64,000 nt of DNA from Anaerolineae bacterium (lineage in GTDB: Bacteria > Chloroflexota > Anaerolineae > S140-20), in the NCBI GenBank assembly GCA_034435435.1, contig DAOTXN010000052.1, forward strand, positions 42,927 to 106,926. The letters run 5' to 3'. The position numbers and the translations under genes were made by a program. Every line of letters starts with the position of its first letter. Position 1 is the first letter of the stretch. Of this stretch, positions 7,010 to 40,677 are shown one piece after another. The notes beneath the pieces are model-generated. The model worked only from the letters and a program-made list of their open reading frames with translations. It was not told the DNA's origin and did not search any database.

Positions 7010-7046
7010 ACAGTATCACTTGCTCACTCTGTCAAGCGAGGCATAA

Positions 7047-9176: not shown

Positions 9177-9226
9177 CAAGCCCGACGGGAACACATTCTT
9201 CCTATCGTCGGGTTGGAGGCAAAACA

Positions 9227-11788
9227 ATGAGCCAATCCAATCACAAACGACCCACCGGCAAGTTACGCCGCCGCATCGCCGGCCTATCGTTGCGGCTCAA
9301 GCTCTTTATCGGTGTAGGCACATTGATCAGCGGTTTGCTCATCGTAGGTAGCATCTCGGTCATCTCCGGTGTGACCACCCAACAACTGGTCAGTCGCACC
9401 CTGGCCCGCCAGCGCCAGTTGGCCGATCTGACCACCCGCATCAATAACACCCTGCTCAACGCCCAAAACCAGGCCTTTGACTTTTATAACACTTGGTCCC
9501 TCACCGGCTTTGAACGTGAAACAAGCGGTTTCGATTATGCGCAGCAGATTTACGTGACCCCTATCCGCGCCAATCTGGATCAGATCCGCACTGACATCGA
9601 GACCATCCGAGAACTCAATCCCGATCAAGCTATGCGCAGCAATCTGGACAAGATTGCCACCAGCGTAGGTGCTTACGAAACCACTCTGATTTCAATGAGC
9701 GACCAGATGGAACGACTGGGGTTTCGTGACACCGGTGAATCCGGACAGCTCTTGCAAATTTTTGACAGCCTGCAGACCGAACTGGGAAAAACAGAGCTGC
9801 AAGCCGCTCAATCTTCCCTCTATGAAATGAAGCAATATGCCGAAAGCTACTTTTTGCGTTCTGAGCTTATCAATGCACGTCTGGTACGCGAGGCAAACAG
9901 AAGGATCCAAGAGCAGATCAGCACTATTCCCGACGCGCAACTCTCGCCCACAACCAAAGTACAATTTGACGGCCTGCTCGAGGACTATTATGACCACTTT
10001 CTAAGAGCGGCCAATCTCTACAATAACCTCCAGACCAGTCGCGCCAACCTGGTTGGTCAAAGCGATTTGACCAGTACTCTGGTACAAGAGTTATATCAAG
10101 AACAGCAAGCCCAGTTCTCCGCCAAAGTCCAAGCACTCCAGAGGCAGCAAGCTCGCACCACCACAGCGACGGGCGTGTTGACCACCATTGTTCTGGTCAG
10201 CGGTACAGTCATTGCTTATTTTGTCATCGGACAAATCATCCAACCCGTGCGGACGCTGGGACAAATCGCCGAACGGTTGGGCGGGGGTGAGCTTGGAGTG
10301 CGAGCCCCAATAGACAGTCGCGACGAAATCGGCGCCACAGCCATCGCGTTTAACTTGATGGCCGACCGGCTCCAGGAATTACTCGCGGAGCTAGAGCAAC
10401 GCGTAGCCGACCGCACCCACGACTTGGAAACCACAGCCGCCGACCTGACCGCGCGTACTGCCGAACTGGAAAAGGTCCATCAAGCCCAGCAACTCATCAA
10501 CCGAGAGCTCGAAGAAACTGTGCGACAGAGTGAGCGCCGCGCAGCCTTGCTCCAAGCCAGCGCAGAGGTTAGCCGCGCCATCACTCAACTTCGTGACCCT
10601 GCCCAAGGTCGCGGGGTGAGCGGTCTGGACCAACTCCTCACCGAGGTGACCCATCTCATCAGTCAACACTTTGGCTTTTACCACGCTGGGGTATTTCTCA
10701 TCGACGAGGCTCGCCGCTTCGCCGTACTGCGCGCAGCTAACAGCCCTGGCGGGCAACGTATGCTGGCCCGACAACACAGACTCGGCGTTGGCTCCGAAGG
10801 CATCGTGGGTTACGTCACTCAGGCTGGCCGTCCACGCATCGCCCTCGACGTCGGTGCTGATGCCTATTATTTCAACAACCCCGACTTGCCCGATACGCGC
10901 TCCGAGATGGCCGTGCCGCTGCACATCGGCGACGAGGTCATTGGCGCCCTGGATGTGCAGAGCACTCAAGAGGCCGCCTTTGACGATCAAGACGTGCGCG
11001 TGTTGACGGCGCTGGCAGCCCAAATCGCCATCGCCATTCAAAACGCCAACCTCTTCCGGCAAACTCAAGAAGCCCTAAGCGAAGCCCAACATGTGCAACA
11101 AAGTTACATTCGCCAGCAATGGACCCAACTCGTCCGCGAACAATCGCCCCTGATTCACGAATATACGTTGAGCGGCGTTCCCCCACTCGGCGACTCCCAA
11201 CTGCCTGAGGTCCAAGAGGCCCTGCGCACCGGGCAGATGATCATCGCCGACGGTAATGGCGACCCAGAACACAGCCCGGTGCGCACGGCTCTGGCGGTCC
11301 CCATTCAAGTGCGCGGGCAAACTATCGGCGTCCTCGACCTGCAAGAAACCGACCACGACCGCCGGTGGACTGCAGACGAACTCGCGCTCATTCAAAGCAT
11401 CGCCGATCAGATGGGCCAGGCGCTCGAGGGGGCGCGCTTGTTTGAAGAAACTCAACGCCGCGCCCAGCGTGAACTCCTCGCCCGCCAGATCACCGAGCGC
11501 ATCCGCGCGGCTGGCGCCGCGGGTGACATCGGCTCTATTTTGCAAACGACTGCCGAGGAGTTGGGCAAAGCCCTGCGCGTCACACGCGCGGTAGCCCGAC
11601 TCCAGGTGCCTACGAGTGGCGACACGCTACAGCGCGTCGAAGCCAGGCAGCCGCAACTGCCTAATGATAAACCCAGCGAAACTGCTCAGCCTCACGCTCC
11701 TGAGCGGGTCTCCCCTAAAGGGGAACCCGCGATTCGGCCCAAATTTGCGCTTTCGACGGCGCAACGCCGGGTCACGGACCCGGCTTGA
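9227..11788 (+). CDS. Membrane sensor: helical extracytoplasmic domain, TM, HAMP, coiled coil, GAF, short second GAF plus conserved C-terminal tail; no output domain
   Basis: TMs LFIGVGTLISGLLIVGSISVISGV and VLTTIVLVSGTVIAYFVIG. HAMP: RDEIGATAIAFNLMADRL. GAF: FGFYHAGVFLID, LPDTRSEMAVPL, GALDVQSTQ. Tail: RWTADELALIQSIADQ...FEETQRRAQRE. Confidence 0.75.
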   Translation: MSQSNHKRPTGKLRRRIAGLSLRLKLFIGVGTLISGLLIVGSISVISGVTTQQLVSRTLARQRQLADLTTRINNTLLNAQNQAFDFYNTWSLTGFERETSGFDYAQQIYVTPIRANLDQIRTDIETIRELNPDQAMRSNLDKIATSVGAYETTLISMSDQMERLGFRDTGESGQLLQIFDSLQTELGKTELQAAQSSLYEMKQYAESYFLRSELINARLVREANRRIQEQISTIPDAQLSPTTKVQFDGLLEDYYDHFLRAANLYNNLQTSRANLVGQSDLTSTLVQELYQEQQAQFSAKVQALQRQQARTTTATGVLTTIVLVSGTVIAYFVIGQIIQPVRTLGQIAERLGGGELGVRAPIDSRDEIGATAIAFNLMADRLQELLAELEQRVADRTHDLETTAADLTARTAELEKVHQAQQLINRELEETVRQSERRAALLQASAEVSRAITQLRDPAQGRGVSGLDQLLTEVTHLISQHFGFYHAGVFLIDEARRFAVLRAANSPGGQRMLARQHRLGVGSEGIVGYVTQAGRPRIALDVGADAYYFNNPDLPDTRSEMAVPLHIGDEVIGALDVQSTQEAAFDDQDVRVLTALAAQIAIAIQNANLFRQTQEALSEAQHVQQSYIRQQWTQLVREQSPLIHEYTLSGVPPLGDSQLPEVQEALRTGQMIIADGNGDPEHSPVRTALAVPIQVRGQTIGVLDLQETDHDRRWTADELALIQSIADQMGQALEGARLFEETQRRAQRELLARQITERIRAAGAAGDIGSILQTTAEELGKALRVTRAVARLQVPTSGDTLQRVEARQPQLPNDKPSETAQPHAPERVSPKGEPAIRPKFALSTAQRRVTDPA

Positions 11789-11836
11789 GCACCAGGCTGA
11801 GCAATTACAAGCCAGCGAAGAATAAGGAGGAAAAAC

Positions 11837-13063
11837 ATGTTCACACGAAATAAATCGAGCATTCTGTTTTTGTTGATCCTCGTGAGCTTGCTCATCCTGC
11901 CGGTCAGTTGTGGGGGCCAAAAGGCCAAAGAGAAGGTCTCAGTCGTGCGCGTCGGCGTTCTCTTTCCGCTCACCGGCGACCTAGCCAGCATCGGTGAAGA
12001 CAACAAGAACGGCGTTGTGCTGGCAGCCGAAGAAATCAACGCCGCTGGAGGCATCAAGGCGTTGGATGGGGCCAAACTCGAGCTAGTCTTTGGCGACACT
12101 CAGGGCAATCCCGACGTCAGCGTCCAGGAGGTCCAGCGGCTCATCGAAGAGGAAAAGGTTGTCGCCATCATCGGCGCTTACCAAAGCAGCGTCACCAAGC
12201 CTGCCACCCAAGAGGCTGAACGCCTTGAAACCCCCTTTATCGTCAGCATGGCAGTCGCCGACGTCATCACCGAACGAGGCTTTCGCTACGTCTTTCGCAT
12301 CTGCCCTAAAGCCAAGTTCTACGGGCGCGATCAGGTGCGCTTTTTTGCCGACCTGGCCGACCTGGCTGGCTATCCGGTGCAGCGGGTGGCCTTGCTGCAC
12401 GAAAACACCGACTTTGGCACCTCCATCGCCCTGGCCCAGAAACAGGCTGCGCAAGAAAGCGGTATGGAGGTGGTAATCGAGGTGAGCTACACGGCCGAAG
12501 GCGCGACAGATCTGAGCGCTGAAGTGGCTCAGGTGCTGGCGGCTCAGCCCGACGCCATCCTGGAGGCCACTTATTTGAATGACAGCATTCTCATTGCCCG
12601 GGCGCTGGCCGCCGCCAACGCACACATACCGCTGTCTGACGCGGCCGGCGGCACCGTCTACCCCGAATACATCCAACAGCTCGGCCCGCTGGCCGAGGGC
12701 ACATTTACCCAGATCGAGTATTCAAAATATGCCCCTGGCGGCAAAGAACTGAACGACCGTTTCCAGGCGCGTTTTGGGGCCGACATCACCGGCAACAGCG
12801 CTTACGCCTATCAGGCCATGCTGGTGCTCCAAGATGCGCTGGAACGCGCCAGGACATTGGACAAGGAGAAATTGCGCGAGGCCCTAGCGGCTACCGATCT
12901 ACCCCGGGGGCCGCAGATGATCATGCCGGCTGAACGGTTACGTTTTGACGCCGAGAATCAGAACGAGTCTGCCACTCTGTTCATGGTTCAGATTCAAGAT
13001 GGCGAACTGGTACCGGTCTGGCCGGCCGAATACGCCACCGCTCCGGTGCGCATGCAGAAATAG
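11837..13063 (+). CDS. Periplasmic/extracytoplasmic substrate-binding lipoprotein, LivJ (branched-chain amino acid binding) type
   Basis: Lipobox LLILPVSCGG. SBP blocks: RVGVLFPLTGDLASIGE and VVAIIGAYQSS. SD AAGGAGG lies 7 nt upstream of the ATG. No permease or ATPase genes are adjacent. Confidence 0.8.
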   Translation: MFTRNKSSILFLLILVSLLILPVSCGGQKAKEKVSVVRVGVLFPLTGDLASIGEDNKNGVVLAAEEINAAGGIKALDGAKLELVFGDTQGNPDVSVQEVQRLIEEEKVVAIIGAYQSSVTKPATQEAERLETPFIVSMAVADVITERGFRYVFRICPKAKFYGRDQVRFFADLADLAGYPVQRVALLHENTDFGTSIALAQKQAAQESGMEVVIEVSYTAEGATDLSAEVAQVLAAQPDAILEATYLNDSILIARALAAANAHIPLSDAAGGTVYPEYIQQLGPLAEGTFTQIEYSKYAPGGKELNDRFQARFGADITGNSAYAYQAMLVLQDALERARTLDKEKLREALAATDLPRGPQMIMPAERLRFDAENQNESATLFMVQIQDGELVPVWPAEYATAPVRMQK

Positions 13064-13074
13064 GGAGTGACATT

Positions 13075-15534
13075 ATGGATCAATCCACGCGCCGGCCTGC
13101 CGAGCCGGCGGGCCCACGGGGCCACCAAACGGTAGGCCCACAACCAGCGCTCCAACTCGCTCGCGTGAGCTGGCGCCGAAGCCTGGCCACCCGCCTGGGA
13201 GGGGTGTTCATCCTCATCGCCGTGCTCTCACTGGCCCTCGTCGGCCTGGTGCTAATACGCACCGCCCGGCAGACCCAGCGCGAGAACATCTTTCGCCTGC
13301 AGGAAAAAAATGGGCGCGAAGTCGTTCTGCAGATTTCAGCCTACCTCAACGACGCCCAGGATGCTCTGAGCCTGTTCGAGCGCACCCAATCACTGACGGC
13401 GCTCGCCGCCGGCGTCCAACAAAAGGCGCTGGAAAACTTGCTCATCCAACGCCGCACCGTGTTCAGCCAGATCACGCTGCTAAACCTGACCGGCAACGAG
13501 CTAGCCAAGGTGTCCGAGTTTCATACCTTTACACCGGCAGAACTGAGCACGATCCGCGAAGCTGACCTGGCAGCCGCCAGCGCAGCATTGAGCGGCCAGT
13601 TCTACGTGAGCGATATCTTTGTCTCGCCAGAGAGTGGGTTGCTATCGGTGCAGATCGGTATGCCGGTCAAGACGTCGGGCGATCAGGTCGCCGGCGCCCT
13701 GCTAGCAGAGGTCAAGGTCACGCGCTTGTGGCAGGATGTATCTCGCATCGAAATCGGTCAAACCGGCTATGCCTACCTGGTAGACCAGAGCGGGCGCTTT
13801 GTCGCCTATCAAGAGCCAGGCGAGGTGTTACAGCGCTACGGTGAAGACATGAGGCACATGCCACCGGTGGCCGAGTTTATCTCCGAGGGAACGGAACACA
13901 CCTTCCACCACCACGAGTATACAGGACTGAACGGCCAAAACGTGATCGGCCTATACACGCCCGTCCCCGGCACGAATTGGGCCGCCATCGTCGAGTTGCC
14001 CACCCAAGAGGCCTTTGCCACCGTCCGACAAATGCAAACGTATCTCGTCGGCCTGACTCTCCTGGGCGCATTCGTCTCCGCCGGGACTGCCTTTGGCGTC
14101 TCTCGTCGCTTTCTGCGCCCCATCCAGCAGTTGACATCCACCGCACAACGCATCGGCGCTGGCGACCTGGAGGCAACAATCCAAGCGCCTTCTCAGGCCG
14201 ACGAAGTGGGTTTGCTGGCTCGTGCATTCCGCCAGATGCAGACGGAGCTAAAACAACTATACAGTGGCCTAGAAACCCAGGTGGCCGAGCGCACCGCCGA
14301 CCTGCAAACGACGGCCTCTGCCCTGGCCAGCCGCAGCCAGGAATTGGAATCGGTTCTGGCTGACTTGCAACGGCGCAGCGAAGAGCTACAAGAAGCTACC
14401 CAACGCCAGGTCCAGATCAACCAGGAACTGCAAAGAGCCAACGAGCTAAGTCAGCGCCGCGCGGCCCGCCTGCAGGCCAGCGCCGAGGTCAGCCACGCAG
14501 CTGCGCAGGTCCGTGACCTGGATAAGCTGTTGCCCCGCGTCACCGAGTTGATCAGCCACTATTTTGGTTACTATCACGCGGGCATCTTTATGATCGACCC
14601 CAACCGCCGTTTTGCCGTGTTGCGCGCCTCCAACAGCCCCGGCGGCCAACGCATGCTGGCCCGGGGCCACAAGCTAGAGATTGGCGTGACCGGCATCGTG
14701 GGGCGCGTCGTGCACACCGGCGAACCCCGCGTGGCCCTGGACGTGGGCGAGGATGCCGTGTACTTTGACAACCCCGATCTGCCCGACACCCGCTCCGAGA
14801 TGGCCGTGCCGTTGCGCGTCGGCGCGGAAGTCATCGGCGCTCTCGACGTACAGAGCACCGAAGCAGGCGCTTTCGACCAGGAAGACGTGGCTGTTCTCTC
14901 CACCCTGGCTGACCAAATTGCCGTCGCCATCGAAAACGCCCGCCTGCTGCGCCAGGCCCAGGAGGCCGTGGAAGAGCTGGAGATGACTCAACGGCTGTAC
15001 TTACAGGAACAGTGGCGCAGCACGACGCGCGGGCCCCAAACCCGCCTGGGCGAGTGGAAAACCGTCGAGACCGGTGTGGAGCAACTGCCGGCCCCGTGCC
15101 TCACCGCGAGCCAGAAAGCTCTGGAGGAAGGGCAGATGGTCGTGCTAGAAAATAACGAACTGGACCAGGCCTTTTCTGTAATGGCCGCTCCGATCAAACT
15201 ACGGGGACAAACCATTGGCGTCCTCGATCTGCAAGAGACCGAGGAACAGCGACATTGGTCCCCCGACGAGATCGCCCTGGTTCAGACAGTCGCCGATCAG
15301 GTGGCCCAGGCGCTGGAAACGGCCCGACTGTTCACAGAGACCCAGCGCCGCGCCGAGCGTGAGCGAATGATTCGCCAAATCACCGACAAAGTGCGCGCCA
15401 GCTCAAACCTGGAGACCATCTTGCAGACAACCGTCCAGGAATTAACCCGCTCAATGGGATTGCCGCGCGCTTTTGTTCGTTTAGGTCTGGAAGAAGACGT
15501 GCGCAACCCAGGTGAATCGAAAGAGTCGCTTTGA
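13075..15534 (+). CDS. Membrane sensor: Cache-like domain, TM, HAMP, coiled coil, GAF, short second GAF plus conserved tail; no output domain
   Basis: TMs VFILIAVLSLALVGLVLI and LVGLTLLGAFVSAGTAFGV. Cache-like: GYAYLVDQSGRFVAY. HAMP: ADEVGLLARAFRQMQTEL. GAF: FGYYHAGIFMID, LPDTRSEMAVPL, GALDVQSTE. Tail: HWSPDEIALVQTVADQ...FTETQRRAERE. Confidence 0.75.
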   Translation: MDQSTRRPAEPAGPRGHQTVGPQPALQLARVSWRRSLATRLGGVFILIAVLSLALVGLVLIRTARQTQRENIFRLQEKNGREVVLQISAYLNDAQDALSLFERTQSLTALAAGVQQKALENLLIQRRTVFSQITLLNLTGNELAKVSEFHTFTPAELSTIREADLAAASAALSGQFYVSDIFVSPESGLLSVQIGMPVKTSGDQVAGALLAEVKVTRLWQDVSRIEIGQTGYAYLVDQSGRFVAYQEPGEVLQRYGEDMRHMPPVAEFISEGTEHTFHHHEYTGLNGQNVIGLYTPVPGTNWAAIVELPTQEAFATVRQMQTYLVGLTLLGAFVSAGTAFGVSRRFLRPIQQLTSTAQRIGAGDLEATIQAPSQADEVGLLARAFRQMQTELKQLYSGLETQVAERTADLQTTASALASRSQELESVLADLQRRSEELQEATQRQVQINQELQRANELSQRRAARLQASAEVSHAAAQVRDLDKLLPRVTELISHYFGYYHAGIFMIDPNRRFAVLRASNSPGGQRMLARGHKLEIGVTGIVGRVVHTGEPRVALDVGEDAVYFDNPDLPDTRSEMAVPLRVGAEVIGALDVQSTEAGAFDQEDVAVLSTLADQIAVAIENARLLRQAQEAVEELEMTQRLYLQEQWRSTTRGPQTRLGEWKTVETGVEQLPAPCLTASQKALEEGQMVVLENNELDQAFSVMAAPIKLRGQTIGVLDLQETEEQRHWSPDEIALVQTVADQVAQALETARLFTETQRRAERERMIRQITDKVRASSNLETILQTTVQELTRSMGLPRAFVRLGLEEDVRNPGESKESL

Positions 15535-15567
15535 TTGGTTTGGTCCCTGTCTATCGAGGGGAATATA

Positions 15568-18500
15568 ATGACCGAAAAACCACCCGCTATGCACCATACG
15601 TACCCACAGCGTGATCCTGCGTCCCAGACCAGACGAGGGGGGCGCGGCGAACGCGATTCAATCCGGCTTCCGACCGACTCGCGGGACAGCGCATCAGAGG
15701 TCTGGAGCACCAGCGCCTTTGTGCAGCTCAGCCAAGCCCTGCTCACGGCCAGCACACTGCAAGAGGTGCTGCACGCCTGTCTGGAGGTGATCGAACCGAC
15801 CGTCGTCAACGGCGTCACCGTCTTGCTCACCGGCGGGCCACCGAGCGACAGCTATTTAGAGATCGCTGCCGTTTGGGAATGCAACGGCCATCCTTACCTC
15901 CCTCTAGGAGCGCGCTTTAGCACCCGCGATTACGCATTTCAACCTTTGTTAACTGGCCAAGACGCCATCGTCATCAACGCTTTGGAAACCGATTTTCGTA
16001 TTCAGGAGCCACTGAGATCGCTGCTCTTGGGCGCCAACGTTCAGGCCCTGGTAGCTCTACCTTTGCGCTCCGGGCGCGAACAGTTTGGCCTCATTATCAT
16101 CGACCGCGACGATCCGCGCGCCTTTGCCCCCGAGCACATCCACATCTACCGAGCCGCCGCCGCATTGGCCGCCGGCGCGGTTGAAAAGCTGCGTCTCATC
16201 CGCGAGGCCAATCGGGCCTTAGCCGAAACCTCTACCCTGTACGAAATCAGCCGGCGACTCTCTCACTCACGTAACGTGAGCGATATCTTGTTCAGCATCC
16301 TCGATAGCCAACTGTTCGGCGCCGCAGGAGGAAGCATTGCTTTACTGGAACCCTCACCCATGGAGGGATCTGGGCAGGATGTTCAAGTCGAGTCAGTTGG
16401 GTCGCAGGTTCAGCCGAACAAACAATTGGTCTTTTGGGCCGCCGCAGGCGTGGGCGCTGAGAGAATTGTCGGTATGCGCATGCCCCTCTCTCAGGGCATT
16501 GTCGGCTGGGTGGTGCGCGAAAACCAGGCCGCCATCGTGCCCGACGCCTACGCCGACGAGCGGTTTTATCCTCAAATTGACGAGGCCACATCTTTCCAGA
16601 CCCAGTCAATCCTGTGTGCTCCCTTGCGCGTCGAAGGACGCGTCATCGGGGCTATCGAACTGGTGGACGTGCCCAACTCCTATCTCAGTCAAGAGGGCGT
16701 GCGCCTGTTGGAACAGATCGCCGATCAGGCCGCCCTGTTCCTCGAAAATCAACGCCTCTTGGCCCAAACTCAGCGCCAGGCCCAAGAACTTTCCACGTTG
16801 CTCAACATCACACAAGAGATGGCTGCAACCCTGGACCGGGAACAAACACTCCGCCTTATCACCTCACGCATTCTCGACTTGGTCAAAGCCGATGGCTGTC
16901 ACGTCTTTCTGCTACAGCCGCGCCCCAACGACAAGCCATTTCTAAAGCCTGTAGCTTCCAGCGACCGCGACGCCGCCTACATCCTCAACACGTCGCTGGA
17001 GTTGGGCCAGGGCATCACCGGAGGGGTAGCCCAGAGTGGTGAGGGTGTCTTGATCAACCGCGTAGATCTGGACCCACGCGGCTTTACCGTCCCTGGAACC
17101 GAGCAAATACCCGAGAGCTTGATCTCGGTGCCACTGGTGTATGAGGGACGCATCAGCGGCGTGATGACCGTCAGTCGGCGGGGCGAGCAGCCCTTTACAT
17201 CGAGTGACTTGAACATTGTTTCTGCGATGGCCAGCCAGGCCGCAACAGTGCTGGAAAACGAGCGCTTGTTCGACGAGGCCCAACAACGCACCCGAGAACT
17301 GGCCGCGTTGAACGCCGTGGTCAGCACCGCCAGTCAGTCGCTGACGTTGGAAGAAATTTTGGACGCCACGTTGCAGCGAGTTGCCGATGTGTTACCCGAC
17401 ACGGCCGGCCTTATCTGTTTGCGTGATGAAAACAGCGGCGAACTACAGATCGCCACCCATCGCAACCTGCCCGCTGCTTTGGTACGCACATTGATCACCA
17501 AAGGTATGCGCGGTACGCTGTGTGAAGTAACAGCCACGCAACGCCAGGCCTACACCGTGGCCGATCTCACTGCTAGCGCGCCCGTGGATACCAGTGGGCT
17601 AGTGAAAGTGGGACTATACGCCTACTTGGGCGCCCCGTTGATCGCTCGCGGGCAGGTTTTGGGCACACTCAGCGTCTTTGGCGCCCAACCCAACTTCTTC
17701 ACTTCCTCCGACGCCGACCTGATGACGGCCATTGGGCAGCAAGTAGGCATTGCCGTGCGCAATGCTCAACTTTATGCACAGACCGAGCGTGCTTTAAAAG
17801 AGTCGCGCAGCCTATATGACACAAGCGCAGCCATGTCCGAAACACTCGACCTGGAGGGTGTGCTACAGATCGCTGTGAACCGCATGGCCGAATACGTCGG
17901 CGCCGATCAATGTCGCCTCGTGCTGTTCGATGAAAGGCTAGGGTACGGCGCTGTGGTAGCCGAATATCGCTCCACGCCGAATGTCGAAACGATACGCATT
18001 CCGATGGCAGATAACCCCTCGTATCAGGTGTTGCGCGACACAGGCCAGGCCATCGCTGTCGAGGACGTGCGCACCCACCCGATCACTGCCGCTATCAAAG
18101 AGATGCTCGCCGAATATGGCGTCAAGTCAATGCTTCTGGTGCCGCTCATCGTCCAGGGGCATCTAATCGGTTCCATTGACCTAGATTCCACCCGCACGCA
18201 TCGCAAATTCACCCAAGCAGAACTTAATTTTTGCCGCACTCTGGCCGACCGCGCTGCGCTGGCCATCCAAAACCGACAACTCTTGGCGCAAACACAATAC
18301 GCCTTGCACGAGACAACCCGGCTCTATCGGGCCAGTCGAGCACTTAACCAAGCTCAAAACCTCTCGGATGTTCTCTACGCCATCACCGACAATTTGCCAA
18401 TTGAACAGATCGACCAATGTTGGATGGCGCTGACCGAATCCGAGTTTGCTGATCAAGACCCTACTCTGCGCAGCTTTCAGATCAAGGCCCTGTGGGATCA

Positions 18501-21312
18501 CGAAGGCGATGCCGGGCTGCAAGACGTCCGCTTCACTGCCCAGGAACTCCCCATGCTGGCTCAACCAGGTCTCGACCGCGTGTGGGTGATCAACGACCTG
18601 GACAGCGAAGCCCGTCTCGACGCTCGTAGCTTGTCTACGTTGCGCGAGATGGGCATCAAATCGGCGCTTATGATTCCCCTCCTCACCGGTGAGTCTCTCC
18701 TGGGTTGGCTGGTCCTCATTACTCACCACCACACGCACATCTTTGATCCCGACCAGGTCCACCCCTACCAGGTTCTGGCCGATCAGGCCGCGGTTGCAAT
18801 ACGCAATCAGCAGTTGCTCGCGCAGGTACAGACCAGTTTGCAGGAGGTTGAGACGGTACACCGCCAATACCTGCGCAGTGAATGGAGCGAATTCTTGCGC
18901 TCGCGCGAAGAATACCATACCGCCTTTGCCTGCGACCGAGGCGCGCTCTTGCCTCTGTCAGAATTCGATCACCCGCTGATCGAACAGGCGATAAATCAAG
19001 GCGATCCCGTGGCCTACGTCGCCCAGTGCGACGACGACAACGGTGATGCAATGCCAAGGGCCAGCCTGGTGGCCCCGCTCAAGGTTCGTGGGCAGGTGCT
19101 AGGTGTGTTAGGCGTCGAAGACCCCGACCAAGCGCACGAATGGACGCCCGAAGAGATCAACACACTCCAAGAAATCGCCGAACGAGTGGCCCAGGCTATC
19201 GAAAGCGCCCGCTTGCTGGACACCACACAGACCAGCCTGGCCGAACAAGCTCGCCTGGCTGTGCAACTCGAGGCCGCCAGCAAGATTAGCCGTGCGGCTA
19301 CGTCGATCCTCGAACTGGATGTGCTACTGCCTAGCGTGGTGGAGTTGATCCGCGATCACTTTAACTACTACCATGCACAGGTGTTTCTGATCGACTCGAC
19401 TCAAAGCTGGGCCGTGCTGCGGGCCAGCACCGGCGAGATCGGACAAAGGCTACTCCAACGGGGTTACGCTCTGGAAGTGGGAGGATCGTCTATCATCGGC
19501 TATGTTACCCACACCGGCCAACCGCGCATCGCTCAAGACGTAGCCACAGATGCGGTTCACCTGAAAGACGAATTGCTGCCCGACACCCGTTCGGAAATGG
19601 CTATCCCGCTACGCACCGGCGAGCGCATTATCGGCGCGCTGGACGTGCAAAGCACCGAATCTGACGCCTTTACACTCGAAGACGTGCAGGTGCTCTCCAC
19701 CCTAGCTGACCAATTAGCTGTGGCTATTGACAACGCTCGGTTGTATCAGGAACAACTAGAGGCCGCTGAAAAACTGCGCGAGGTGGACCGGCTCAAATCG
19801 CAATTCTTGGCCAATATGTCCCACGAATTGCGCACACCGCTCAACTCGATCATCGGCTTTTCGCGGGTCATCCTGAAAGGCATCGACGGCCCGCTGACCG
19901 ATTTGCAGAAACAGGACCTTACGGCCATTTACAACAGTGGACAAAACTTGCTCAAGCTTATCAACGACATTCTGGACCATGCCAAGATCGAAGCTGGCAA
20001 GATGGAAATGGCTTTTGAGGAGACCGATCTGAACGAAGTCATCGCTGGAGCTATGACTACAGCGCAAGCCTTGGTCAAAGATAAACCCCAGGTTGAATTA
20101 CGCTACACTCTCGCGCCAGACTTACCCACCATCATCGCCGACGCCACCCGAGTGCGTCAGGTATTGCTCAATTTGCTCTCCAACGCAGCCAAATTCACCC
20201 AAGAGGGATACATCGAACTGACGGCTACCCACGACGAGCGATCTGTCATCATCAAGGTCAGTGACACAGGCGCAGGCATTCCACCCGACAAATACGACGT
20301 CATCTTTGAGGCCTTTGAGCAAGTAGATGGCTCACCCACACGCCGAGTGGGCGGCACCGGCTTGGGCCTGCCCATCAGCCGGCAGTTCATCGAGATGCAC
20401 GGAGGGCGCATCTGGGTGGAAAGCGAGATTGGCGCCGGATCCACGTTTTTCGTCCAACTGCCCATCCGCGGCCCACACACCGAGCCTGTCGTCCGAGACC
20501 AGCCAGTTGTCAGCACCCACCAGCGCCTGGTCCTGGCCATTGATGACGATGATGATGTGATCCAGATGTACAGACGGTATCTCGAACGGCAAAACTACCA
20601 AGTTCACGGCCTGACAGACAGCGAGCAAGCCGTCGAAATAGCTCGTGAGCTGCGACCTTTTGCCATCTTGCTTGACTTGCTGATGCCGAATAAGGATGGA
20701 TGGGCGATCATCCGCGAGCTTAAAGCCAACCCAGAGACCCAAGATATGCCCATAATTATGTGCAGCATCGTGAACGCTGCAGGACGTGGTTTTAGCCTGG
20801 GCGCCGCCGATTTTCTGGTCAAGCCCATCACGGAGAAGCAATTACTGACCACTTTGGCCCGTCTCCAAGACAGTTCACCGGAGGGGCGGCCCAACCGCCC
20901 TCTGCAAGTGCTCATCATCGACGATACCGCCGACGACCGCAAGCTCTTGCGCCGCACCCTGGAATCGACCGACGGCGCATATCACGTCCTGGAAGCCAGC
21001 AACGGCTATCAAGGTATCGACATGATTCAACAGCAACGACCTGACCTGGTCGTGTTGGACCTGATGATGCCCGAAATGGATGGCTTTGCCGTGCTTGAAT
21101 TGCTCAAACGAGACGAAGAGCTACGCCAGATCCCCATCATTATTGTTACGGCTAAAGAACTCACAGAACAAGAACGTATCCGTATCAACGGACAAGCCGC
21201 CGCCTTATTCCAAAAAGGTCTGTTCAAAGCCGAAGAGTTGCTTCAAGACGTGAATTATGCTCTGCATCAGGTAGGCCGCGTGACCCAGGAAAGCACAAAG
21301 GAAGAGGAATGA
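15568..21312 (+). CDS. Giant hybrid sensor histidine kinase: about nine GAF domains, HisKA, HATPase_c, two receiver domains
   Basis: H-box: MSHELRTPLNSIIGF. N-box: LLSNAAKFT. G-boxes: DTGAGIP and GGTGLGLPISRQF. REC1: ILLDLLMPNKDG. REC2: VVLDLMMPEMDG...TAKELT. The ATG at 15568 follows GAGGGG; an alternative TTG at 15535 directly abuts the upstream stop. Confidence 0.85.
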   Translation: MTEKPPAMHHTYPQRDPASQTRRGGRGERDSIRLPTDSRDSASEVWSTSAFVQLSQALLTASTLQEVLHACLEVIEPTVVNGVTVLLTGGPPSDSYLEIAAVWECNGHPYLPLGARFSTRDYAFQPLLTGQDAIVINALETDFRIQEPLRSLLLGANVQALVALPLRSGREQFGLIIIDRDDPRAFAPEHIHIYRAAAALAAGAVEKLRLIREANRALAETSTLYEISRRLSHSRNVSDILFSILDSQLFGAAGGSIALLEPSPMEGSGQDVQVESVGSQVQPNKQLVFWAAAGVGAERIVGMRMPLSQGIVGWVVRENQAAIVPDAYADERFYPQIDEATSFQTQSILCAPLRVEGRVIGAIELVDVPNSYLSQEGVRLLEQIADQAALFLENQRLLAQTQRQAQELSTLLNITQEMAATLDREQTLRLITSRILDLVKADGCHVFLLQPRPNDKPFLKPVASSDRDAAYILNTSLELGQGITGGVAQSGEGVLINRVDLDPRGFTVPGTEQIPESLISVPLVYEGRISGVMTVSRRGEQPFTSSDLNIVSAMASQAATVLENERLFDEAQQRTRELAALNAVVSTASQSLTLEEILDATLQRVADVLPDTAGLICLRDENSGELQIATHRNLPAALVRTLITKGMRGTLCEVTATQRQAYTVADLTASAPVDTSGLVKVGLYAYLGAPLIARGQVLGTLSVFGAQPNFFTSSDADLMTAIGQQVGIAVRNAQLYAQTERALKESRSLYDTSAAMSETLDLEGVLQIAVNRMAEYVGADQCRLVLFDERLGYGAVVAEYRSTPNVETIRIPMADNPSYQVLRDTGQAIAVEDVRTHPITAAIKEMLAEYGVKSMLLVPLIVQGHLIGSIDLDSTRTHRKFTQAELNFCRTLADRAALAIQNRQLLAQTQYALHETTRLYRASRALNQAQNLSDVLYAITDNLPIEQIDQCWMALTESEFADQDPTLRSFQIKALWDHEGDAGLQDVRFTAQELPMLAQPGLDRVWVINDLDSEARLDARSLSTLREMGIKSALMIPLLTGESLLGWLVLITHHHTHIFDPDQVHPYQVLADQAAVAIRNQQLLAQVQTSLQEVETVHRQYLRSEWSEFLRSREEYHTAFACDRGALLPLSEFDHPLIEQAINQGDPVAYVAQCDDDNGDAMPRASLVAPLKVRGQVLGVLGVEDPDQAHEWTPEEINTLQEIAERVAQAIESARLLDTTQTSLAEQARLAVQLEAASKISRAATSILELDVLLPSVVELIRDHFNYYHAQVFLIDSTQSWAVLRASTGEIGQRLLQRGYALEVGGSSIIGYVTHTGQPRIAQDVATDAVHLKDELLPDTRSEMAIPLRTGERIIGALDVQSTESDAFTLEDVQVLSTLADQLAVAIDNARLYQEQLEAAEKLREVDRLKSQFLANMSHELRTPLNSIIGFSRVILKGIDGPLTDLQKQDLTAIYNSGQNLLKLINDILDHAKIEAGKMEMAFEETDLNEVIAGAMTTAQALVKDKPQVELRYTLAPDLPTIIADATRVRQVLLNLLSNAAKFTQEGYIELTATHDERSVIIKVSDTGAGIPPDKYDVIFEAFEQVDGSPTRRVGGTGLGLPISRQFIEMHGGRIWVESEIGAGSTFFVQLPIRGPHTEPVVRDQPVVSTHQRLVLAIDDDDDVIQMYRRYLERQNYQVHGLTDSEQAVEIARELRPFAILLDLLMPNKDGWAIIRELKANPETQDMPIIMCSIVNAAGRGFSLGAADFLVKPITEKQLLTTLARLQDSSPEGRPNRPLQVLIIDDTADDRKLLRRTLESTDGAYHVLEASNGYQGIDMIQQQRPDLVVLDLMMPEMDGFAVLELLKRDEELRQIPIIIVTAKELTEQERIRINGQAAALFQKGLFKAEELLQDVNYALHQVGRVTQESTKEEE

Positions 21313-23066
21313 CTCGGACATCCACCTCCCTCATGTCATCAGATGCATGGCTCGAATGCGCCGCCTGCGGCCAACGTCACCCGCTGAATGCCCGCATCAC
21401 ACAATGCGAAGCGTGCGGCGAGGACTGGCTCGACGCTCGCTACGACTATGCGGCGCTGGGCGAGTTGTGGCGACGAGAACTGCACCGCCGACCGTTCAAT
21501 AGCATCTGGCGTTATCGCGAATGGTTGCCGCTGCGCCGCGACGAAAACATCGTCTCGATGAACGAAGGCGGCACCCCACTGCTCCACTGCAAAAACCTGG
21601 GTTTGATGCTGGGTTGCCCCAATATTTACATCAAGGATGAGCGTCAAGGCCCCACCGGCTCTTTCAAAGACCGGCAGGCATCGCTGGCTATCTCAGTGAT
21701 GAAAGAAATGGGTCTCTCGGAAGCCGTTTTGGCCTCTACCGGCAACGTCGCCATCTCCTACGCTGCATACGGCGCGCGGGCAGGCATTAAAATCTGGGCC
21801 TTTGTCACCAGCACCGTCCCCGCCGACAAGATGCGCGAAGTGGCGCTGTATGGCGCAGAGGTCGTCAAGGTCACGGCGACGTACGACCAGACCAAACAGG
21901 TAGCGGCCCGCTTTGCCGAGCACAAACAACTGCACCTCGACCGGGGCATCCGCAGCATCGCCGCCAAGGAGAGCATGAAGACGGTGGCGTTCGAGATCGC
22001 CGAACAATTGGGCCTGCTCGCCGGCCGCCCTATGAGCGAGCCGTTTTGGCGGGTGATGCCTGGTCAGGCCTGGCGCGTGCCCGACTGGTACTTTCAGGCC
22101 GTCAGCGGCGGATTGGGACCGGTGGGGGTGTGGAAAGGCTTTGAAGAACTCAAGCGCATGGGGTTGACCGACCACCTTCCCAAACTGGCCTGCATCCAGG
22201 CCGCTGGCTGCGCCCCTATGGTTCACTCGTTCCAGAAGGGATTGGAACACGCCGAGTCGGTGCTCAACCCTCAAACGCTCATCACCACGGTGGCCACCGG
22301 CAGCCCTGGCCCGGCCTACACCTTTTTGCAGCGCGTGGTTCGAGAATATGGAGGTGCCTTTGAGTGTGTGACCGACGAAGAAGCCTTCCGCGCCATGCAC
22401 CTGATGGCTAAACTGGATGGCTTTTCGATGGAGCCAGCCGCGGCGATAGCCTTTGCCGGCCTGTTCAAAATGGTGCGACAAGGGACTATCCAACCTGACG
22501 AGGTGATCGTAGTCAATTGTTCCGGCCACACCTTCCCGGTCGAAAAACACCTGCTCAACGAAGGCTGGGCGCGTAGTCTGGATTTGGGCATTGAGGCGCC
22601 CTTAGCCGAGGCAGTCGCAGCCCCAGAGACCAAAGTGGCTTTTCCACTGCCTCAAGAAGAGGGCCTGCTGGTCTCGTTGGAAAGGCTGGACGACCGCGTC
22701 AAGAGCGTCGCCATCGTCGAAGACGAGCCGGACGCAGCGCGGCTGTTGCGCCGCATCATCCAGGCGCGCGGGGGCTATCAGATTTTCGAGGCTCATAACG
22801 GCCGCGAGGGGCTGGAACTGATCCGCCGCGAACGCCCCGACCTGGTGTTGCTGGACCTAATGATGCCGGAGATGGACGGCTTTACGGTGCTCGGCAAAAT
22901 GAAAGAGCAAAAAGAAACCGCCGACATCCCGGTCATCGTCATCACCGCCAAAGACCTGACCCTACAGGAACGCCGGCGGCTCAGCGGACACGTCGAGTCG
23001 CTGCTGCAAAAAGGCTCCTACATGGACATGGAATTGTTGGACGATCTGATGGATGTGTTGGCGTGA
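21309..23066 (+). CDS. Threonine synthase-like PLP-dependent enzyme with N-terminal zinc ribbon, fused to a C-terminal response-regulator receiver domain
   Basis: Zinc ribbon: CAACGQ...CEACG. PLP-lysine block: GPTGSFKDRQASLAIS. ASTGNVAISYAAYGARAG matches the ThrC family. C-terminal REC: VAIVEDEPD...LLDLMMPEMDGF...VITAKDLT. The ATGA start overlaps the kinase stop. Confidence 0.8.
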   Translation: MTRTSTSLMSSDAWLECAACGQRHPLNARITQCEACGEDWLDARYDYAALGELWRRELHRRPFNSIWRYREWLPLRRDENIVSMNEGGTPLLHCKNLGLMLGCPNIYIKDERQGPTGSFKDRQASLAISVMKEMGLSEAVLASTGNVAISYAAYGARAGIKIWAFVTSTVPADKMREVALYGAEVVKVTATYDQTKQVAARFAEHKQLHLDRGIRSIAAKESMKTVAFEIAEQLGLLAGRPMSEPFWRVMPGQAWRVPDWYFQAVSGGLGPVGVWKGFEELKRMGLTDHLPKLACIQAAGCAPMVHSFQKGLEHAESVLNPQTLITTVATGSPGPAYTFLQRVVREYGGAFECVTDEEAFRAMHLMAKLDGFSMEPAAAIAFAGLFKMVRQGTIQPDEVIVVNCSGHTFPVEKHLLNEGWARSLDLGIEAPLAEAVAAPETKVAFPLPQEEGLLVSLERLDDRVKSVAIVEDEPDAARLLRRIIQARGGYQIFEAHNGREGLELIRRERPDLVLLDLMMPEMDGFTVLGKMKEQKETADIPVIVITAKDLTLQERRRLSGHVESLLQKGSYMDMELLDDLMDVLA

Positions 23067-23110
23067 TGAGTGAAACGTCATGAGTAATGCGTGATTCACG
23101 TTTCACGTTT
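23061..23110. repeat. Intergenic hairpin element, CGTGAAACG / CGTTTCACG family (copy 1), between convergent genes
   Basis: GTGAAACGT pairs with ACGTTTCAC (9 bp). Tandem TTCACG-type heptamers (ATTCACG TTTCACG TTTTGCG) are present. A related copy lies at 41230-41295. Confidence 0.5.
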
Positions 23111-24053
23111 TGCGCTCTGCCTCTGCCTCCAGCGCAGCCATCCACTCTTCGGCCGTAAAATCGGCGCGCGAATCGCGCCGCACCAACAGCCCGGCGGTGA
23201 TGATGAACGCGCCGCCCAGCCACTGCCACGGCGTCAGGCGCTCGCCCAGTAACACAAAAGCCACCAACAGCGTGACAAACATCTCGCTCAGGCCCAAGAG
23301 CGCCGTTTGAATCCCGCCCAACATGCTCAGTCCCAAAAACATGAACAGGCGCGACAGCGCCGTGACGGTCCCCAGGCCCAGCACCGCCCCCCAGCCCGCC
23401 GCCGAAATGGGCTCCAGGGGCGCGCCTCGGGCCAGCCGCGCCACGCACACCACCGCCGCCATCGTCGTCAACACGTATAACGCCACCGAGCGCGGCGCCA
23501 CGTCTGCCGTGACCCATTGCCCCAGCACCAGATGCCAGCCATAAAAAGCTGCTGCGGCCATCATAAGCATGATTCCCATAGGGTCGGCCGCCCCGTGGGT
23601 CTGGGTCAACAACAGCACACCGCCGCCGGCCAACATCAGCCCCACTACTGTAAAGCGGCTCAACGGTTGGCCCGACGCCGCCAAAAATACCACCACCCAC
23701 AGCGTATACGTGGTGTTGATGAGCGAAACCAGCGAGGCGTCAATGCGTGACAGGGCATTATAATAGAACAGCGAACCGATCCCATTGACCAACCCCACTG
23801 CCACACAACCCACCAGATCGGACCGCGAAACGCGAATGTAGCGCCGCCAGAATATGAAATAAAACAACCACAACAATCCCGCCGCCAGCGCCGTGCGCAT
23901 GGCCACGACGGTGTAGGCGCTTAGCCCCTCGCCATAGGCCAGCTTGCCAAAAATGGGCGCCCAGCCCAAAAATACCGTGGAGAACAGCGCCGCCCCCACT
24001 CCCCACACCTGCCGGCGATCCATAGCGTGGCGGCCCAACCGATATGTGCTCAT
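23103..24053 (-). CDS. DMT-superfamily (EamA-like) transporter, about 10 TM
   Basis: Polytopic hydrophobic protein with the two-EamA-repeat style (FLGWAPIFGKLAY...; LLGERLTPWQWLGGAFIITAGLL). Start chosen at the ATG preceded by GGAGGAAG; the ORF extends to 24173. Confidence 0.75.
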   Translation of the reverse strand: MSTYRLGRHAMDRRQVWGVGAALFSTVFLGWAPIFGKLAYGEGLSAYTVVAMRTALAAGLLWLFYFIFWRRYIRVSRSDLVGCVAVGLVNGIGSLFYYNALSRIDASLVSLINTTYTLWVVVFLAASGQPLSRFTVVGLMLAGGGVLLLTQTHGAADPMGIMLMMAAAAFYGWHLVLGQWVTADVAPRSVALYVLTTMAAVVCVARLARGAPLEPISAAGWGAVLGLGTVTALSRLFMFLGLSMLGGIQTALLGLSEMFVTLLVAFVLLGERLTPWQWLGGAFIITAGLLVRRDSRADFTAEEWMAALEAEAERKT

Positions 24054-24163
24054 TTCACTTCCTCCAGCTGCCCCCGAGAAAAGCCCAAGACGAGCCAGTT
24101 GCCATCCTGCTACAATGATGCTACACTGTCTGGCGTACAACGTCTTCAGAACGCGGCGCCAGG

Positions 24164-24739
24164 ATGAAAACACTTGCTCGTAAAATAAAAACGGTGTGGC
24201 AAAGACTCAACCGCTCGCAGCGTCGCGCATTGGCCTTACTGGGGATGATCAACCTGATAGTTCTGGGTATCCTCGCGTTATTGCTGCTGCGGCCGCCCAT
24301 GGCACAAATCGCACTCTTGCAGTCGCCGCTCGCCGCGTCCCAGGTAGAAACCTGTCGTCAATCGGTGAGTCGGGCGCTGCTCCAGCGCGGGTCCAGCGGC
24401 CTGGTCCAAGCTTTGGCCGACGGCAGCCTCCTCATCCAGTTGGAGCGTCCAACGGCCAACCCTGGTCCTTCGGTTGGAACTGGCTCAAACCACCTGCGCA
24501 GCGCCGCCGACGCCGCCGTTTGGCTGGCGTTTGAGGCGCTTTCTGGGGCCGGGCGCGACGCCTGCCAGGGTTTTCGGACCGTTCACGTCACGGTCGTGAT
24601 TCAGATCGCCGATTCGCAGCCTGTGCGGGTGACAGCGCGCGCCGCGCTATCCGACGTGCTAACCTGGTCGCAGGGCCGATTCGACGACGCCGAACTGGCC
24701 CGGCGTGTGGAATACCATGCGCCCGACGCCAGCCCTTGA
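24164..24739 (+). CDS. Hypothetical membrane-anchored protein
   Basis: 191-aa ORF with a single N-terminal TM (ALALLGMINLIVLGILALLLL). No family recognised. Confidence 0.45.
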   Translation: MKTLARKIKTVWQRLNRSQRRALALLGMINLIVLGILALLLLRPPMAQIALLQSPLAASQVETCRQSVSRALLQRGSSGLVQALADGSLLIQLERPTANPGPSVGTGSNHLRSAADAAVWLAFEALSGAGRDACQGFRTVHVTVVIQIADSQPVRVTARAALSDVLTWSQGRFDDAELARRVEYHAPDASP

Positions 24740-27890: not shown

Positions 27891-29046
27891 ATGACGCTCC
27901 GGAGGATACCAATGGAAAAGGCATCTGTCGCTATCTGTGATCACTTTGCTGACCTGGAAGACCCCAGGATTGATCGCACCAAGCGGCATAAACTCCTCGA
28001 CATCGTAACGCTCGCCATCTGTGCGGTGATCTGTGGTGCGGATACGTGGGTCGACGTGGAGGGGTTCGGCCAGGCTAAACTGGACTGGTTTCGCACGTTT
28101 CTGGAAGTGCCCAATGGCATCCCTTCTCATGACACCTTTGGACGGGTGTTTGCGCGGCTGGACCCCGACCAGTTCCGGGAGAGCTTCGTCAGTTGGGTAC
28201 AGGCGATCAGTCAGCGGGTCAGGGGCGAAGTCGTGGCGCTGGATGGCAAGACCTTGCGTGGTTCGCACGACGGCGGACTGGGCCGAGCGGCCATCCACAT
28301 GGTCAGCGCCTGGGCCACAACTCACCACTTGGTGCTGGGGCAATTGAAGGTGGACGCCAAGTCGAACGAAATCACGGCCATCCCTGAATTGCTGCGGCTG
28401 TTGGTGTTGGAAGGCTGTATCGTCACCATCGACGCCATGGGCTGCCAGACCGAGATCGCTCAGACCATCGTGGATGCAGAAGCAGACTATGTGCTGGCGC
28501 TCAAGGGCAACCAAGGCACGTTGCATCGGGACGTGCAAGAGATGTTCGCCCTTGCGCAGGCCAGCCACTTTGAGCATGTGGCGCACGACGCGTACCAGAC
28601 GACGGAGAAAAACCACGGCCGGATCGAGACCCGCCGCCATTGGACCATCTCCGAACCAGAGTTGATCGCCTATTTGGACCCCGATGGTGCGTGGGCCGGC
28701 TTGCAGAGCATCGGCATGGTCGAAGCCGAGCGGCGCATCGGCGATGAAACGACGCGCGAAACGCGCTACTACATCTCCACTCTCGGGAAAGGCACGCGAA
28801 CTGGGTCAGGCCGTGCGCGCCCACTGGGGCATCGAAAACCGTGTTCATTGGGTGCTCGATGTAGCCTTTCGCGAAGATGACAGTCGCGTGCGCCAAGGCA
28901 ACGCAGCCCAGAACTTTGCCATCTTGCGCCACATCGCCCTCAACCTGCTGCGGCAGGAAAAGTCAGCCAAGTGCGGCATCAAGGCCAAGCGTCTGAAAGC
29001 GGGTTGGAGCGAAGCCTATCTGTCCAAGGTGCTCACCGGTGGTTAA
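27891..29046 (+). pseudogene. ISAs1-family (DDE_Tnp_1-associated) transposase, interrupted by a frameshift near 28785-28792
   Basis: N-terminal part: FADLEDPRIDRTKRHKLLDIV...TIDAMGCQTEIA...RYYISTL. It continues in another frame as [55 protein letters not shown]. Confidence 0.75.
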
Positions 29047-29394: not shown

Positions 29395-29616
29395 TTCAGA
29401 TCTCAGGCTAGCATATCTCGATCAACGACAATACCAGTATCTTATCACATCTCGTCATCTCCCACAATGGTGCTGGTCGGTCATGACTGTTCGACAAGTG
29501 GTAAAAGTGGATGATACGCCCTAATCGAATTTCGTCAAGCCATATACGAGAGTGGAAGACAAAAACCCTGCCGTGGCAGAAGCCGCAGCAGCTTCGAGTG
29601 GATCTAGCATCACCGC

Positions 29617-29645
29617 TTGCGCGCGTTCGCCGGTCCGAGTACAAT
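29617..29645 (+). promoter_or_regulatory. Candidate sigma70-type promoter P1 upstream of nuoA (TTGCGC-17-TACAAT)
   Basis: The -35 TTGCGC (29617-29622) and -10 TACAAT (29640-29645) are spaced by 17 nt. The distal 16 nt, ccggtccgagtacaat, are repeated exactly in P2. Confidence 0.4.
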
Positions 29646-29779
29646 TCGGGCCGTGAAGAAAAGCGCCAGTTGTATATCGCATTCTGCGCCGCGCAAATCG
29701 CTCGTATTCCCAAAGAGAACTCTCATCGGCTTTCCTTCATCATTCTATATTCACTTGTGTTTACTTTCACCTCCATACC

Positions 29780-29808
29780 TTGCCGTTTCGTACCGGTCCG
29801 AGTACAAT
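29780..29808 (+). promoter_or_regulatory. Candidate sigma70-type promoter P2 upstream of nuoA (TTGCCG-17-TACAAT)
   Basis: The -35 TTGCCG (29780-29785) and -10 TACAAT (29803-29808) are spaced by 17 nt, 54 nt upstream of the nuoA ATG. It shares the 16-mer ccggtccgagtacaat with P1. Confidence 0.45.
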
Positions 29809-29861
29809 ATGGATGGTTAGAACAAGGGTTTTATTGCGCAAAGTCCAAGGGGAACGGTTCG

Positions 29862-30697: not shown

Positions 30698-30703
30698 CAG
30701 ATA

Positions 30704-31261: not shown

Positions 31262-31329
31262 ACGCTCACCGCAGAGACGCGGAGAGCGCAGAGAAAAACG
31301 AAAAACTCTGCGGCGAAAGAGTAGTTAAA

Positions 31330-32583: not shown

Positions 32584-32623
32584 TTGGCAGATCGGCAAAC
32601 TGGGAAACAGCAAGGAGCCAACG

Positions 32624-33527: not shown

Positions 33528-33537
33528 TCACCGAGAT

Positions 33538-34830: not shown

Positions 34831-34850
34831 TCGGTCGAGCCAAAAGAACT

Positions 34851-35330: not shown

Positions 35331-35338
35331 TGGTTCCC

Positions 35339-35384: not shown

Positions 35385-35403
35385 TCCACAAACGAGTGTG
35401 CTT

Positions 35404-39625: not shown

Positions 39626-39635
39626 GGAGACCGGT

Positions 39636-40655: not shown

Positions 40656-40677
40656 GTTGGTAAATTGGGGAAGAAAG

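Follow-up and report, generated by a model that had tools for sequence, protein, structure and literature searches.

Response regulators are known to act on transcription, second-messenger turnover, chemotaxis proteins and protein phosphatases. In the enzymatic response regulators CheB, PleD/WspR, RpfG and those of PP2C type, a receiver domain with a full phospho-pocket is carried on an enzyme, and the kinase is encoded beside it. Both features recur in the gene described here, which lies in a stretch of 64,000 nt (the window) from an Anaerolineae bacterium of the phylum Chloroflexota (GenBank assembly GCA_034435435.1, contig DAOTXN010000052.1, positions 42,927 to 106,926). The gene encodes a protein of 585 amino acids (aa) in which an N-terminal zinc ribbon and a pyridoxal phosphate (PLP) domain similar to threonine synthase (ThrC) are followed by a receiver. 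In contrast to the regulators named above, the presumed output is a PLP enzyme of amino-acid type and not a signalling, nucleotide- or protein-modifying enzyme, and the receiver is C-terminal. Receiver-controlled enzymes as such are already known; a literature search for receiver fusions of threonine synthases or PLP enzymes returned nothing relevant, and no characterized example of a receiver on a PLP enzyme of amino-acid type was found. On balance, and with modest confidence, we read the protein as an atypical response regulator of Anaerolineae-type Chloroflexota whose output is a phosphorylation-controlled, zinc-ribbon-bearing ThrC-like PLP enzyme, with a substrate or product that is probably amino-acid-like and handled by an EamA-family transporter.

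Class-I threonine synthases (Thermus 1UIM/1V7C, Mycobacterium tuberculosis 2D1F, Aquifex 2ZSJ, Bacillus subtilis 6CGQ) have the same fold as the PLP domain of the fusion protein (target-normalized TM-score ∼0.8, 28–33% identity) and share with it the SFKDR lysine motif, the S-T-G-N carboxylate loop and the Ser/Thr facing the pyridine nitrogen. Compared with these enzymes, the fusion protein has in addition the zinc ribbon and the receiver, and it carries other residues in place of the NSxNPxR and GNAGN motifs and of T88. The zinc-ribbon and PALP layout is common to the fusion protein and the PRK08197 family (NF006050); PRK08197 proteins have no receiver, and their motifs KARG, TAGNA and GGGTGL stand against KDRQ, STGNV and SGGLGP in the fusion. 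Plant threonine synthase is activated by S-adenosylmethionine (SAM) through an appended domain. Such a regulatory module on a ThrC-fold core, found in the plant enzyme (2C2B) and in ThrC-LeuA_dimer fusions, resembles the architecture described here; there, small molecules regulate by binding, whereas the fusion protein would be controlled through phosphorylation. Another paralog that arose from ThrC and changed its specificity is cysteate synthase (TIGR03844; CapA2, PDB 9K3C), whose fold is similar (target-normalized TM-score 0.74), but only the C-terminal half aligns. The Microcystis ThrC of a ‘unique ThrC lineage’, which has an extra N-terminal domain and reportedly both threonine synthase and threonine deaminase activities, is likewise a divergent ThrC outside the canonical clade; it has no receiver (PMC12172450). 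Several other long ThrC-like proteins were seen: P0180 (611 aa) combines PALP with a C-terminal LeuA allosteric (LeuA_dimer) domain by Pfam; P0184, P0194, P0205, P0217, P0230 and P0240 are of similar size (∼611–627 aa); and P0248 is a 718-aa protein with inositol-monophosphatase-family and PALP parts.

Architecture and distribution of the fusion

Both domains were matched by Pfam far beyond chance within a single open reading frame (ORF): PALP (PF00291) with an E-value of 1.9e-62 (211.7 bits versus a cut-off of 35, profile positions 1–295 of 295) and Response_reg (PF00072) over residues 467–568 with an E-value of 2e-21 (76.6 bits versus a cut-off of 30.2). A preliminary description of this DNA, made by reading the letters, had claimed just such a 585-aa product, with a ThrC-type PLP body fused to a complete receiver; its claims of a zinc ribbon and of a PLP lysine in the motif GSFKDRQ were borne out as well. 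The four cysteines (C17, C20, C33 and C36) are invariant across 39–49 orthologs (alignments A1 and A2), with a weak match of DUF7129 at the ribbon that stayed under the Pfam cut-off (E-value 0.0015). The lysine, K120, aligns with K61 of the Thermus threonine synthase, and the ASTGN loop of the fusion protein is formed by residues 142–146.

The ATG of the gene, as had been noted, overlaps the TGA of the upstream 1925-aa kinase ORF (ATGA) within ...GGAAGAGGAATGACTCGG. However, residues 1–8 of the protein are missing in more than half of the orthologs, and M9 (nt 21333), not the kinase-overlapping ATG, may be where the protein starts. The M9 start would convert the 4-nt overlap into a 20-nt gap; such spacing is still operon-like.

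The receiver motifs named in the preliminary description were found, and the key residues of an intact receiver are in place: the acidic pair E471-D472, the phospho-acceptor D516 in LLDLMMP, T546-A547 and K568. D472, D516, A547 and K568 are invariant in both alignments; position 546 is T or S among orthologs, with T in at least 90% of the A2 sequences. This residue pattern indicates that the domain is a competent phospho-acceptor and not a pseudo-receiver. Its proposed close paralogy with the second receiver of the upstream kinase was also seen (48% identity, E-value 5e-35, versus 33% identity to the first receiver).

The linker between the two domains had been put at ∼40 aa; it is about 50–60 aa long. 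Its only conserved stretch is the motif E451-G-L-L-x-S/A-L457 (nt 22659–22679), which directly precedes the receiver, has G452, L453 and L457 invariant in A1 and is also present in variants with two receivers (ThrC-REC-REC; P0123 and P0124); the rest of the linker is variable and has low per-residue model confidence (pLDDT). The motif is a candidate coupling element.

A search over 5.8 billion proteins detected at least 120 clusters with 64–100% identity and full coverage, all with PALP and Response_reg; a second search with a standalone relative as the query added more than 100 fusion clusters at 57–64% identity. These clusters come from Anaerolineae, Aggregatilineales or Chloroflexota and are named ‘threonine synthase’ or ‘pyridoxal-phosphate dependent enzyme’. 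The exact protein of the window (P0001) is present on two contigs. In a scan of one genome per species we found 35 full-length fusion copies, all in Chloroflexota (Anaerolineales, Bellilinea, Caldilineaceae, Thermoflexales and Ca. Villigracilis). Among 42 fusion sequences with 46–100% identity, 107 of the 585 positions are invariant, the PLP domain being the most conserved part. This conservation tells us that the fusion architecture is real and under selection. The suggestion that the architecture is uncharacterized thus stands in part: no paper describing it was found, but it is common in Anaerolineae-type Chloroflexota and has been annotated automatically under names that carry no known role.

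An assembly or frameshift artefact, by which a thrC-like gene would have been merged with an independent receiver gene, was considered and rejected. The same in-frame fusion occurs in hundreds of independent assemblies (JGI, ENA, NCBI and Logan) and in the 35 genomes, it is syntenic with a histidine kinase gene, and a conserved motif lies inside the linker; the probability of an artefact is negligible.

In a neighbour-joining tree (a simple distance tree built from 312 PLP-domain columns) all fusions and one standalone protein (P0122) form one clade with 96 of 100 bootstrap replicates. Because all fusions group in this clade, the receiver was acquired once.

Specificity of the PLP domain

By sequence, the nearest solved structures are class-I threonine synthases (E-values from 1e-47 to 1e-40), and the top PDB matches of the AlphaFold2 model (pLDDT 74.7) found with Foldseek are threonine synthases as well (target-normalized TM-score 0.78–0.82). 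The PLP site is intact: all 42 fusions keep K120 and S143-N146, the aligned counterparts of Thermus K61 and S84-N87, together with S266-G-G-[LM]-G-P, and have T or S at position 405. The loss of catalytic residues that would have spoken against an enzyme was thus not observed.

The substrate side of the pocket is different. Thermus residues T88, N154, S155, R160 and N188, which we take to be the phosphate ligands of O-phosphohomoserine, are kept in three solved threonine synthases and in the zinc-ribbon representatives of canonical signature P0153, P0167, P0176, P0260 and P0266. All five are replaced in each of the 42 fusions: T88 by V or A (position 147; V147 in the window), N154 by G (G213), S155 by A or I (position 214; I214), R160 by A or S (position 219; A219) and N188 by G (G267). 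In addition, Thermus G64 corresponds to an invariant Q (position 123) in the fusion clade.

The whole-protein hidden Markov model (HMM) scores agree with this picture, as the window protein falls short of the cut-off in all seven threonine-synthase models of NCBIfam. The best-scoring model was NF006050 (PRK08197; 256.8 bits versus a cut-off of 303), followed by NF004170 (174.1 versus 421), TIGR00260 (159.4 versus 167.1), NF006205 (132.1 versus 358), NF005035 (123.8 versus 301) and NF004996 (112.7 versus 266). Of the ‘threonine-synthase-like’ body described earlier, the PLP domain of the ThrC superfamily is confirmed, but the protein is not a canonical threonine synthase by either the cut-offs or the phosphate-site residues. 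A cysteate-synthase-like identity, raised at the same time, fared no better: the TIGR03844 model gave 116.6 bits versus a cut-off of 324.9, with only residues 256–407 aligned.

One could still argue for a genuine threonine synthase gated by phosphorylation, by which threonine supply would come under direct two-component control. Threonine synthases are the best HMM and structure matches, the TIGR00260 score is borderline, and NCBI and JGI call many orthologs ‘threonine synthase’; nevertheless, every curated cut-off was failed, all five canonical positions are replaced throughout the fusions, and in the tree the fusion clade stands apart, with a bootstrap of 77/100 towards canonical threonine synthases and of 100/100 towards the PRK08197 family. 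A gene of PRK08197 threonine-synthase type in some of the related modules (type B, see below) can be read either way, as a hint of threonine metabolism or as a sign that those genomes already have such an enzyme next door. The neighbouring EamA protein is a distant relative of RhtA, an exporter of threonine and homoserine, but no hom or thrB gene was found in any neighbourhood examined. The divergent cyanobacterial ThrC with an extra N-terminal domain, which was reported to keep threonine synthase and deaminase activity (PMC12172450), is a precedent in favour. Taken together, we consider this alternative decidedly unlikely. Judged by its sequence, the domain very probably works as a PLP enzyme whose specificity is not that of threonine synthase; the fusion protein appears to be a ThrC-like paralog for which the database name ‘threonine synthase’ is doubtful.

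Standalone proteins of the ‘SGGxGP’ group occur in NeuB/DegT glycan clusters and a radical-SAM/TauE cluster, not in threonine operons. Among the standalone relatives (40–56% identity), P0141 (loci L093 and L094) is encoded beside NeuB, a glycosyltransferase and a DegT aminotransferase, and P0135 (L095) beside a radical-SAM/SPASM enzyme and a TauE-family exporter. The relative in L086 (P0281/P0122, 56% identical to the window protein) has a cyanobacterial context, with a phycobilisome linker gene nearby, and is convergent with a GAF-PAS sensor gene.

Genomic context of the fusion gene

The ORFs of 37 related loci were compared with the window proteins, and Pfam-annotated neighbourhoods were read. 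In the window, the gene upstream of the fusion gene encodes a kinase with eight GAF stretches followed by HisKA, HATPase_c and two receivers (Pfam). A GAF histidine kinase gene ends 0–210 nt before the fusion gene, often overlapping it, in ∼30 of the 33 loci with upstream sequence, and is itself preceded by several genes for Cache/HAMP/GAF proteins; in L033 and L090 a small kinase gene follows the fusion gene instead. A promoter and terminator scan around the gene was uninformative, with no sigma70-like promoter between the kinase and fusion genes.

Two types of module were distinguished. In type A (the window, its relatives at 73–79% identity and a clade at 52–58%), a kinase gene with or without two fused receivers is followed by the fusion gene and by a gene for an EamA transporter of the drug/metabolite transporter (DMT) family, which is convergent in the clade of the window and co-directional elsewhere. 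Of the 35 genome loci, 15 have EamA next to the fusion gene, as do L081–L083, L089 and L090. In L014, L033 and L090 the two are separated by a small kinase gene, the last locus being a minimal triad of fusion gene, kinase and EamA without a GAF array. EamA adjacency thus survives rearrangements.

In type B (a clade at 46–49% identity), the kinase gene is followed by the fusion gene and one or two genes for single-domain receivers. Eight such loci (L018, L023, L025, L026, L029, L034, L091 and L092) have a PRK08197-type ‘threonine synthase’ gene one or two genes downstream (∼12.0–13.3 kb in loci taken with 10-kb flanks), whose products score 575–578 bits versus the cut-off of 303. The top 120 database clusters for this neighbour are all at least 79% identical, and both long-contig homologs inspected sit in the same module. 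As for a separate canonical thrC, the presence of which had been left as a question in the preliminary description, no second ThrC homolog was found in the 64-kb window, and none in 1.4 Mb of related loci except for these PRK08197-type genes beside the fusion in type-B relatives.

The receivers fused to the kinase in the lineage of the window (20500–21312) are separate receiver genes downstream in L018–L031, L087, L091 and L092. The kinase of the 46–49% clade has no receiver, i.e. the same components are present in different fusions.

The type-B arrangement raises the idea of a regulatory paralog that heterodimerizes with the PRK08197 enzyme and makes it phosphorylation-dependent. Threonine synthases are dimers, and the two genes are within one or two genes of each other in the eight loci. 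Still, the partners are deep paralogs (only ∼30% identity to each other), and the fusion protein retains a PLP lysine and an active site that a purely regulatory subunit would not need. The idea applies to type B only: the module type of the window has no PRK08197 neighbour, and none lies within the 64 kb. We regard it as very unlikely.

Neither a DNA-binding regulator nor another effector or a histidine phosphotransfer (Hpt) protein was conserved in the module in the neighbourhoods read. Because no such effector is conserved, the PLP domain, its sole non-signalling domain, is the only candidate output, which fits a phosphorylation-to-enzyme output.

Table 1. Positions of the fusion gene, its parts and other features in the window
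Feature	Position (nt)	Strand	Basis or remark
ThrC-like-REC (receiver) fusion gene	21309..23066	+	585-aa ORF, ATG start; PALP + Response_reg (Pfam)
N-terminal 4-Cys zinc ribbon (C17, C20, C33, C36)	21351..21422	+	Cys invariant in alignments A1, A2
Fold-type-II PLP domain (PALP, residues 82–406)	21552..22526	+	Pfam, alignments, AlphaFold2 model matches
PLP lysine K120	21666–21668	+	inside PALP domain
Carboxylate loop S143-N146; PLP-phosphate loop S266-G-G-L-G-P271	inside PALP domain	+	
Inter-domain linker, residues 416–463	22554..22697	+	conservation profile; low pLDDT outside motif
Receiver domain, residues 464–585	22698..23063	+	Pfam, conserved key residues, 48% identity to kinase REC2
Phospho-acceptor D516 codon	22854–22856	+	receiver; other key residues D472, T546, K568
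Presumed cognate hybrid histidine kinase (multi-GAF, HisKA, HATPase_c, REC1, REC2)	15535..21312	+	Pfam; gene caller starts 15568 (1914 aa)
EamA/DMT-family transporter, convergent with fusion gene	23103..24173	−	Pfam EamA; gene caller 23103–24053 (316 aa)
Upstream co-directional sensor array	22..15534	+	Pfam, transmembrane-like segments; homologous arrays upstream in related loci
LivJ-like solute-binding protein	11837–13063	+	within upstream array, Pfam
191-aa protein with a single transmembrane segment	24164–24739	+	no Pfam or NCBIfam match
870-aa beta-helix/NosD/DUF11 protein, N-terminal hydrophobic segment	24769–27381	−	
Insertion sequence-type transposase (DDE_Tnp_1 + DDE_Tnp_1_assoc)	27891–28880	+	∼4 kb downstream of module
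Complex I (nuo) operon	∼29500–47900	+	NuoB, NuoF, NuoG, NuoL-type subunits confirmed by Pfam

The upstream array of the window (Table 1) consists of six genes co-directional with the kinase gene. Four encode membrane proteins in which a Cache domain between transmembrane segments is followed by HAMP and one or two GAF domains, with no transmitter or other output domain; one encodes a 1665-aa cytoplasmic protein with PAS and seven GAF domains, also without an output domain; the sixth is the gene for the LivJ-like solute-binding protein. Such output-less Cache/HAMP/GAF genes precede the kinase gene in most related loci, and their products may be split sensor subunits that act via GAF-GAF contacts with the multi-GAF kinase. 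The amino-acid-sensing dCache motif RxW[YF] was not found in the upstream Cache proteins, which gives no support for an amino-acid input.

On the other side of the module, the 191-aa protein is conserved after EamA only in close relatives of the window (32–34% identity). A transposase with the same Pfam domains as that of the window is encoded directly after EamA in an unrelated Chloroflexota genome (L089, 12855–14018). In L082, a gene for a GNAT acetyltransferase is inserted between nuoE and nuoF; the window ORF at 33066–33527 matches it in size and position.

Proposed mechanism and alternatives

In the reading that we favour, the adjacent GAF-rich histidine kinase would integrate the signals of the upstream Cache/HAMP/GAF proteins and phosphorylate the receiver at D516. 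The other receivers of the module, which are part of the kinase in type A and separate proteins in type B, could serve as competing acceptors or phosphate sinks. Once phosphorylated, the receiver would act via the conserved linker on the oligomerization or conformation of the PLP domain and thereby turn a PLP-dependent amino-acid reaction on or off. Threonine formation from O-phosphohomoserine is probably not that reaction, since small, apolar residues take the place of the canonical phosphate pocket; a different amino-acid-like substrate that undergoes beta/gamma-replacement or elimination would be more likely. In type A, the substrate or product probably crosses the membrane via the EamA transporter, since this neighbour is conserved. 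PALP + LeuA_dimer fusions, in which the ThrC fold is combined with a regulatory domain, also count in favour of the proposed control.

Several observations weigh against this reading. The AlphaFold2 model has no confident packing between the domains and its receiver end is poorly modelled; as the linker and the receiver C-terminus are of low confidence, the inter-domain geometry is unusable. A C-terminal receiver on an effector is unusual among response regulators. The remodelled loop of the PLP domain retains the non-invariant basic residues R212, R215 and K220, which would be compatible with an anionic substrate, and the phosphate-ligand role of the five Thermus positions is presumed, in keeping with their conservation pattern. 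With regard to transport, type-B loci have no EamA and many have the PRK08197 ‘threonine synthase’ instead, i.e. the transporter link is not universal; moreover, the EamA protein matches the RhtA model at just 26.7 bits.

The domain order bears on another explanation, in which the PLP domain is a ligand sensor: an amino acid bound as external aldimine would modulate phosphate gain or loss by the receiver, and the protein would work as a metabolite-gated phosphate sink or connector. An N-terminal sensor followed by a C-terminal receiver suits input-then-receiver logic better than receiver-then-output logic. PLP-fold domains do serve as effector sensors in the MocR/GabR regulators, and the pathway has three to four receivers and no Hpt (REC1 and REC2 of the kinase or separate receiver genes, and in some cases ThrC-REC-REC). 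Such a role would, however, leave the module without any output. The active-site constellation is fully conserved, more so than the receiver, as expected of catalysis, and the conserved presence of a transporter gene, or of one for a second ThrC-like enzyme, beside the fusion gene suggests a flux of metabolite. We find a sensor role unlikely.

A more specific form of the enzymatic reading is a ‘sense-and-secrete’ module, in which a multi-input two-component array would gate, by phosphorylation, the synthesis of a non-proteinogenic amino acid or an amino-acid-derived small molecule exported by EamA, in place of a transcriptional response. This version is speculative and rather unlikely as it stands; if true, filamentous Chloroflexota would make an extracellular metabolite or signal under post-translational control.

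The hundreds of ‘threonine synthase’ entries that lack the canonical substrate-binding residues point to a systematic mis-annotation in the databases. The family is abundant in Anaerolineae, major filamentous bacteria of sludge, sediments and digesters, in which the fusion gene ends one of the largest conserved sensor arrays of the genome. If our reading is true, direct phospho-control of a PLP enzyme of amino-acid type would be a new class of response-regulator output, by which these bacteria would link sensing to metabolism without transcription.

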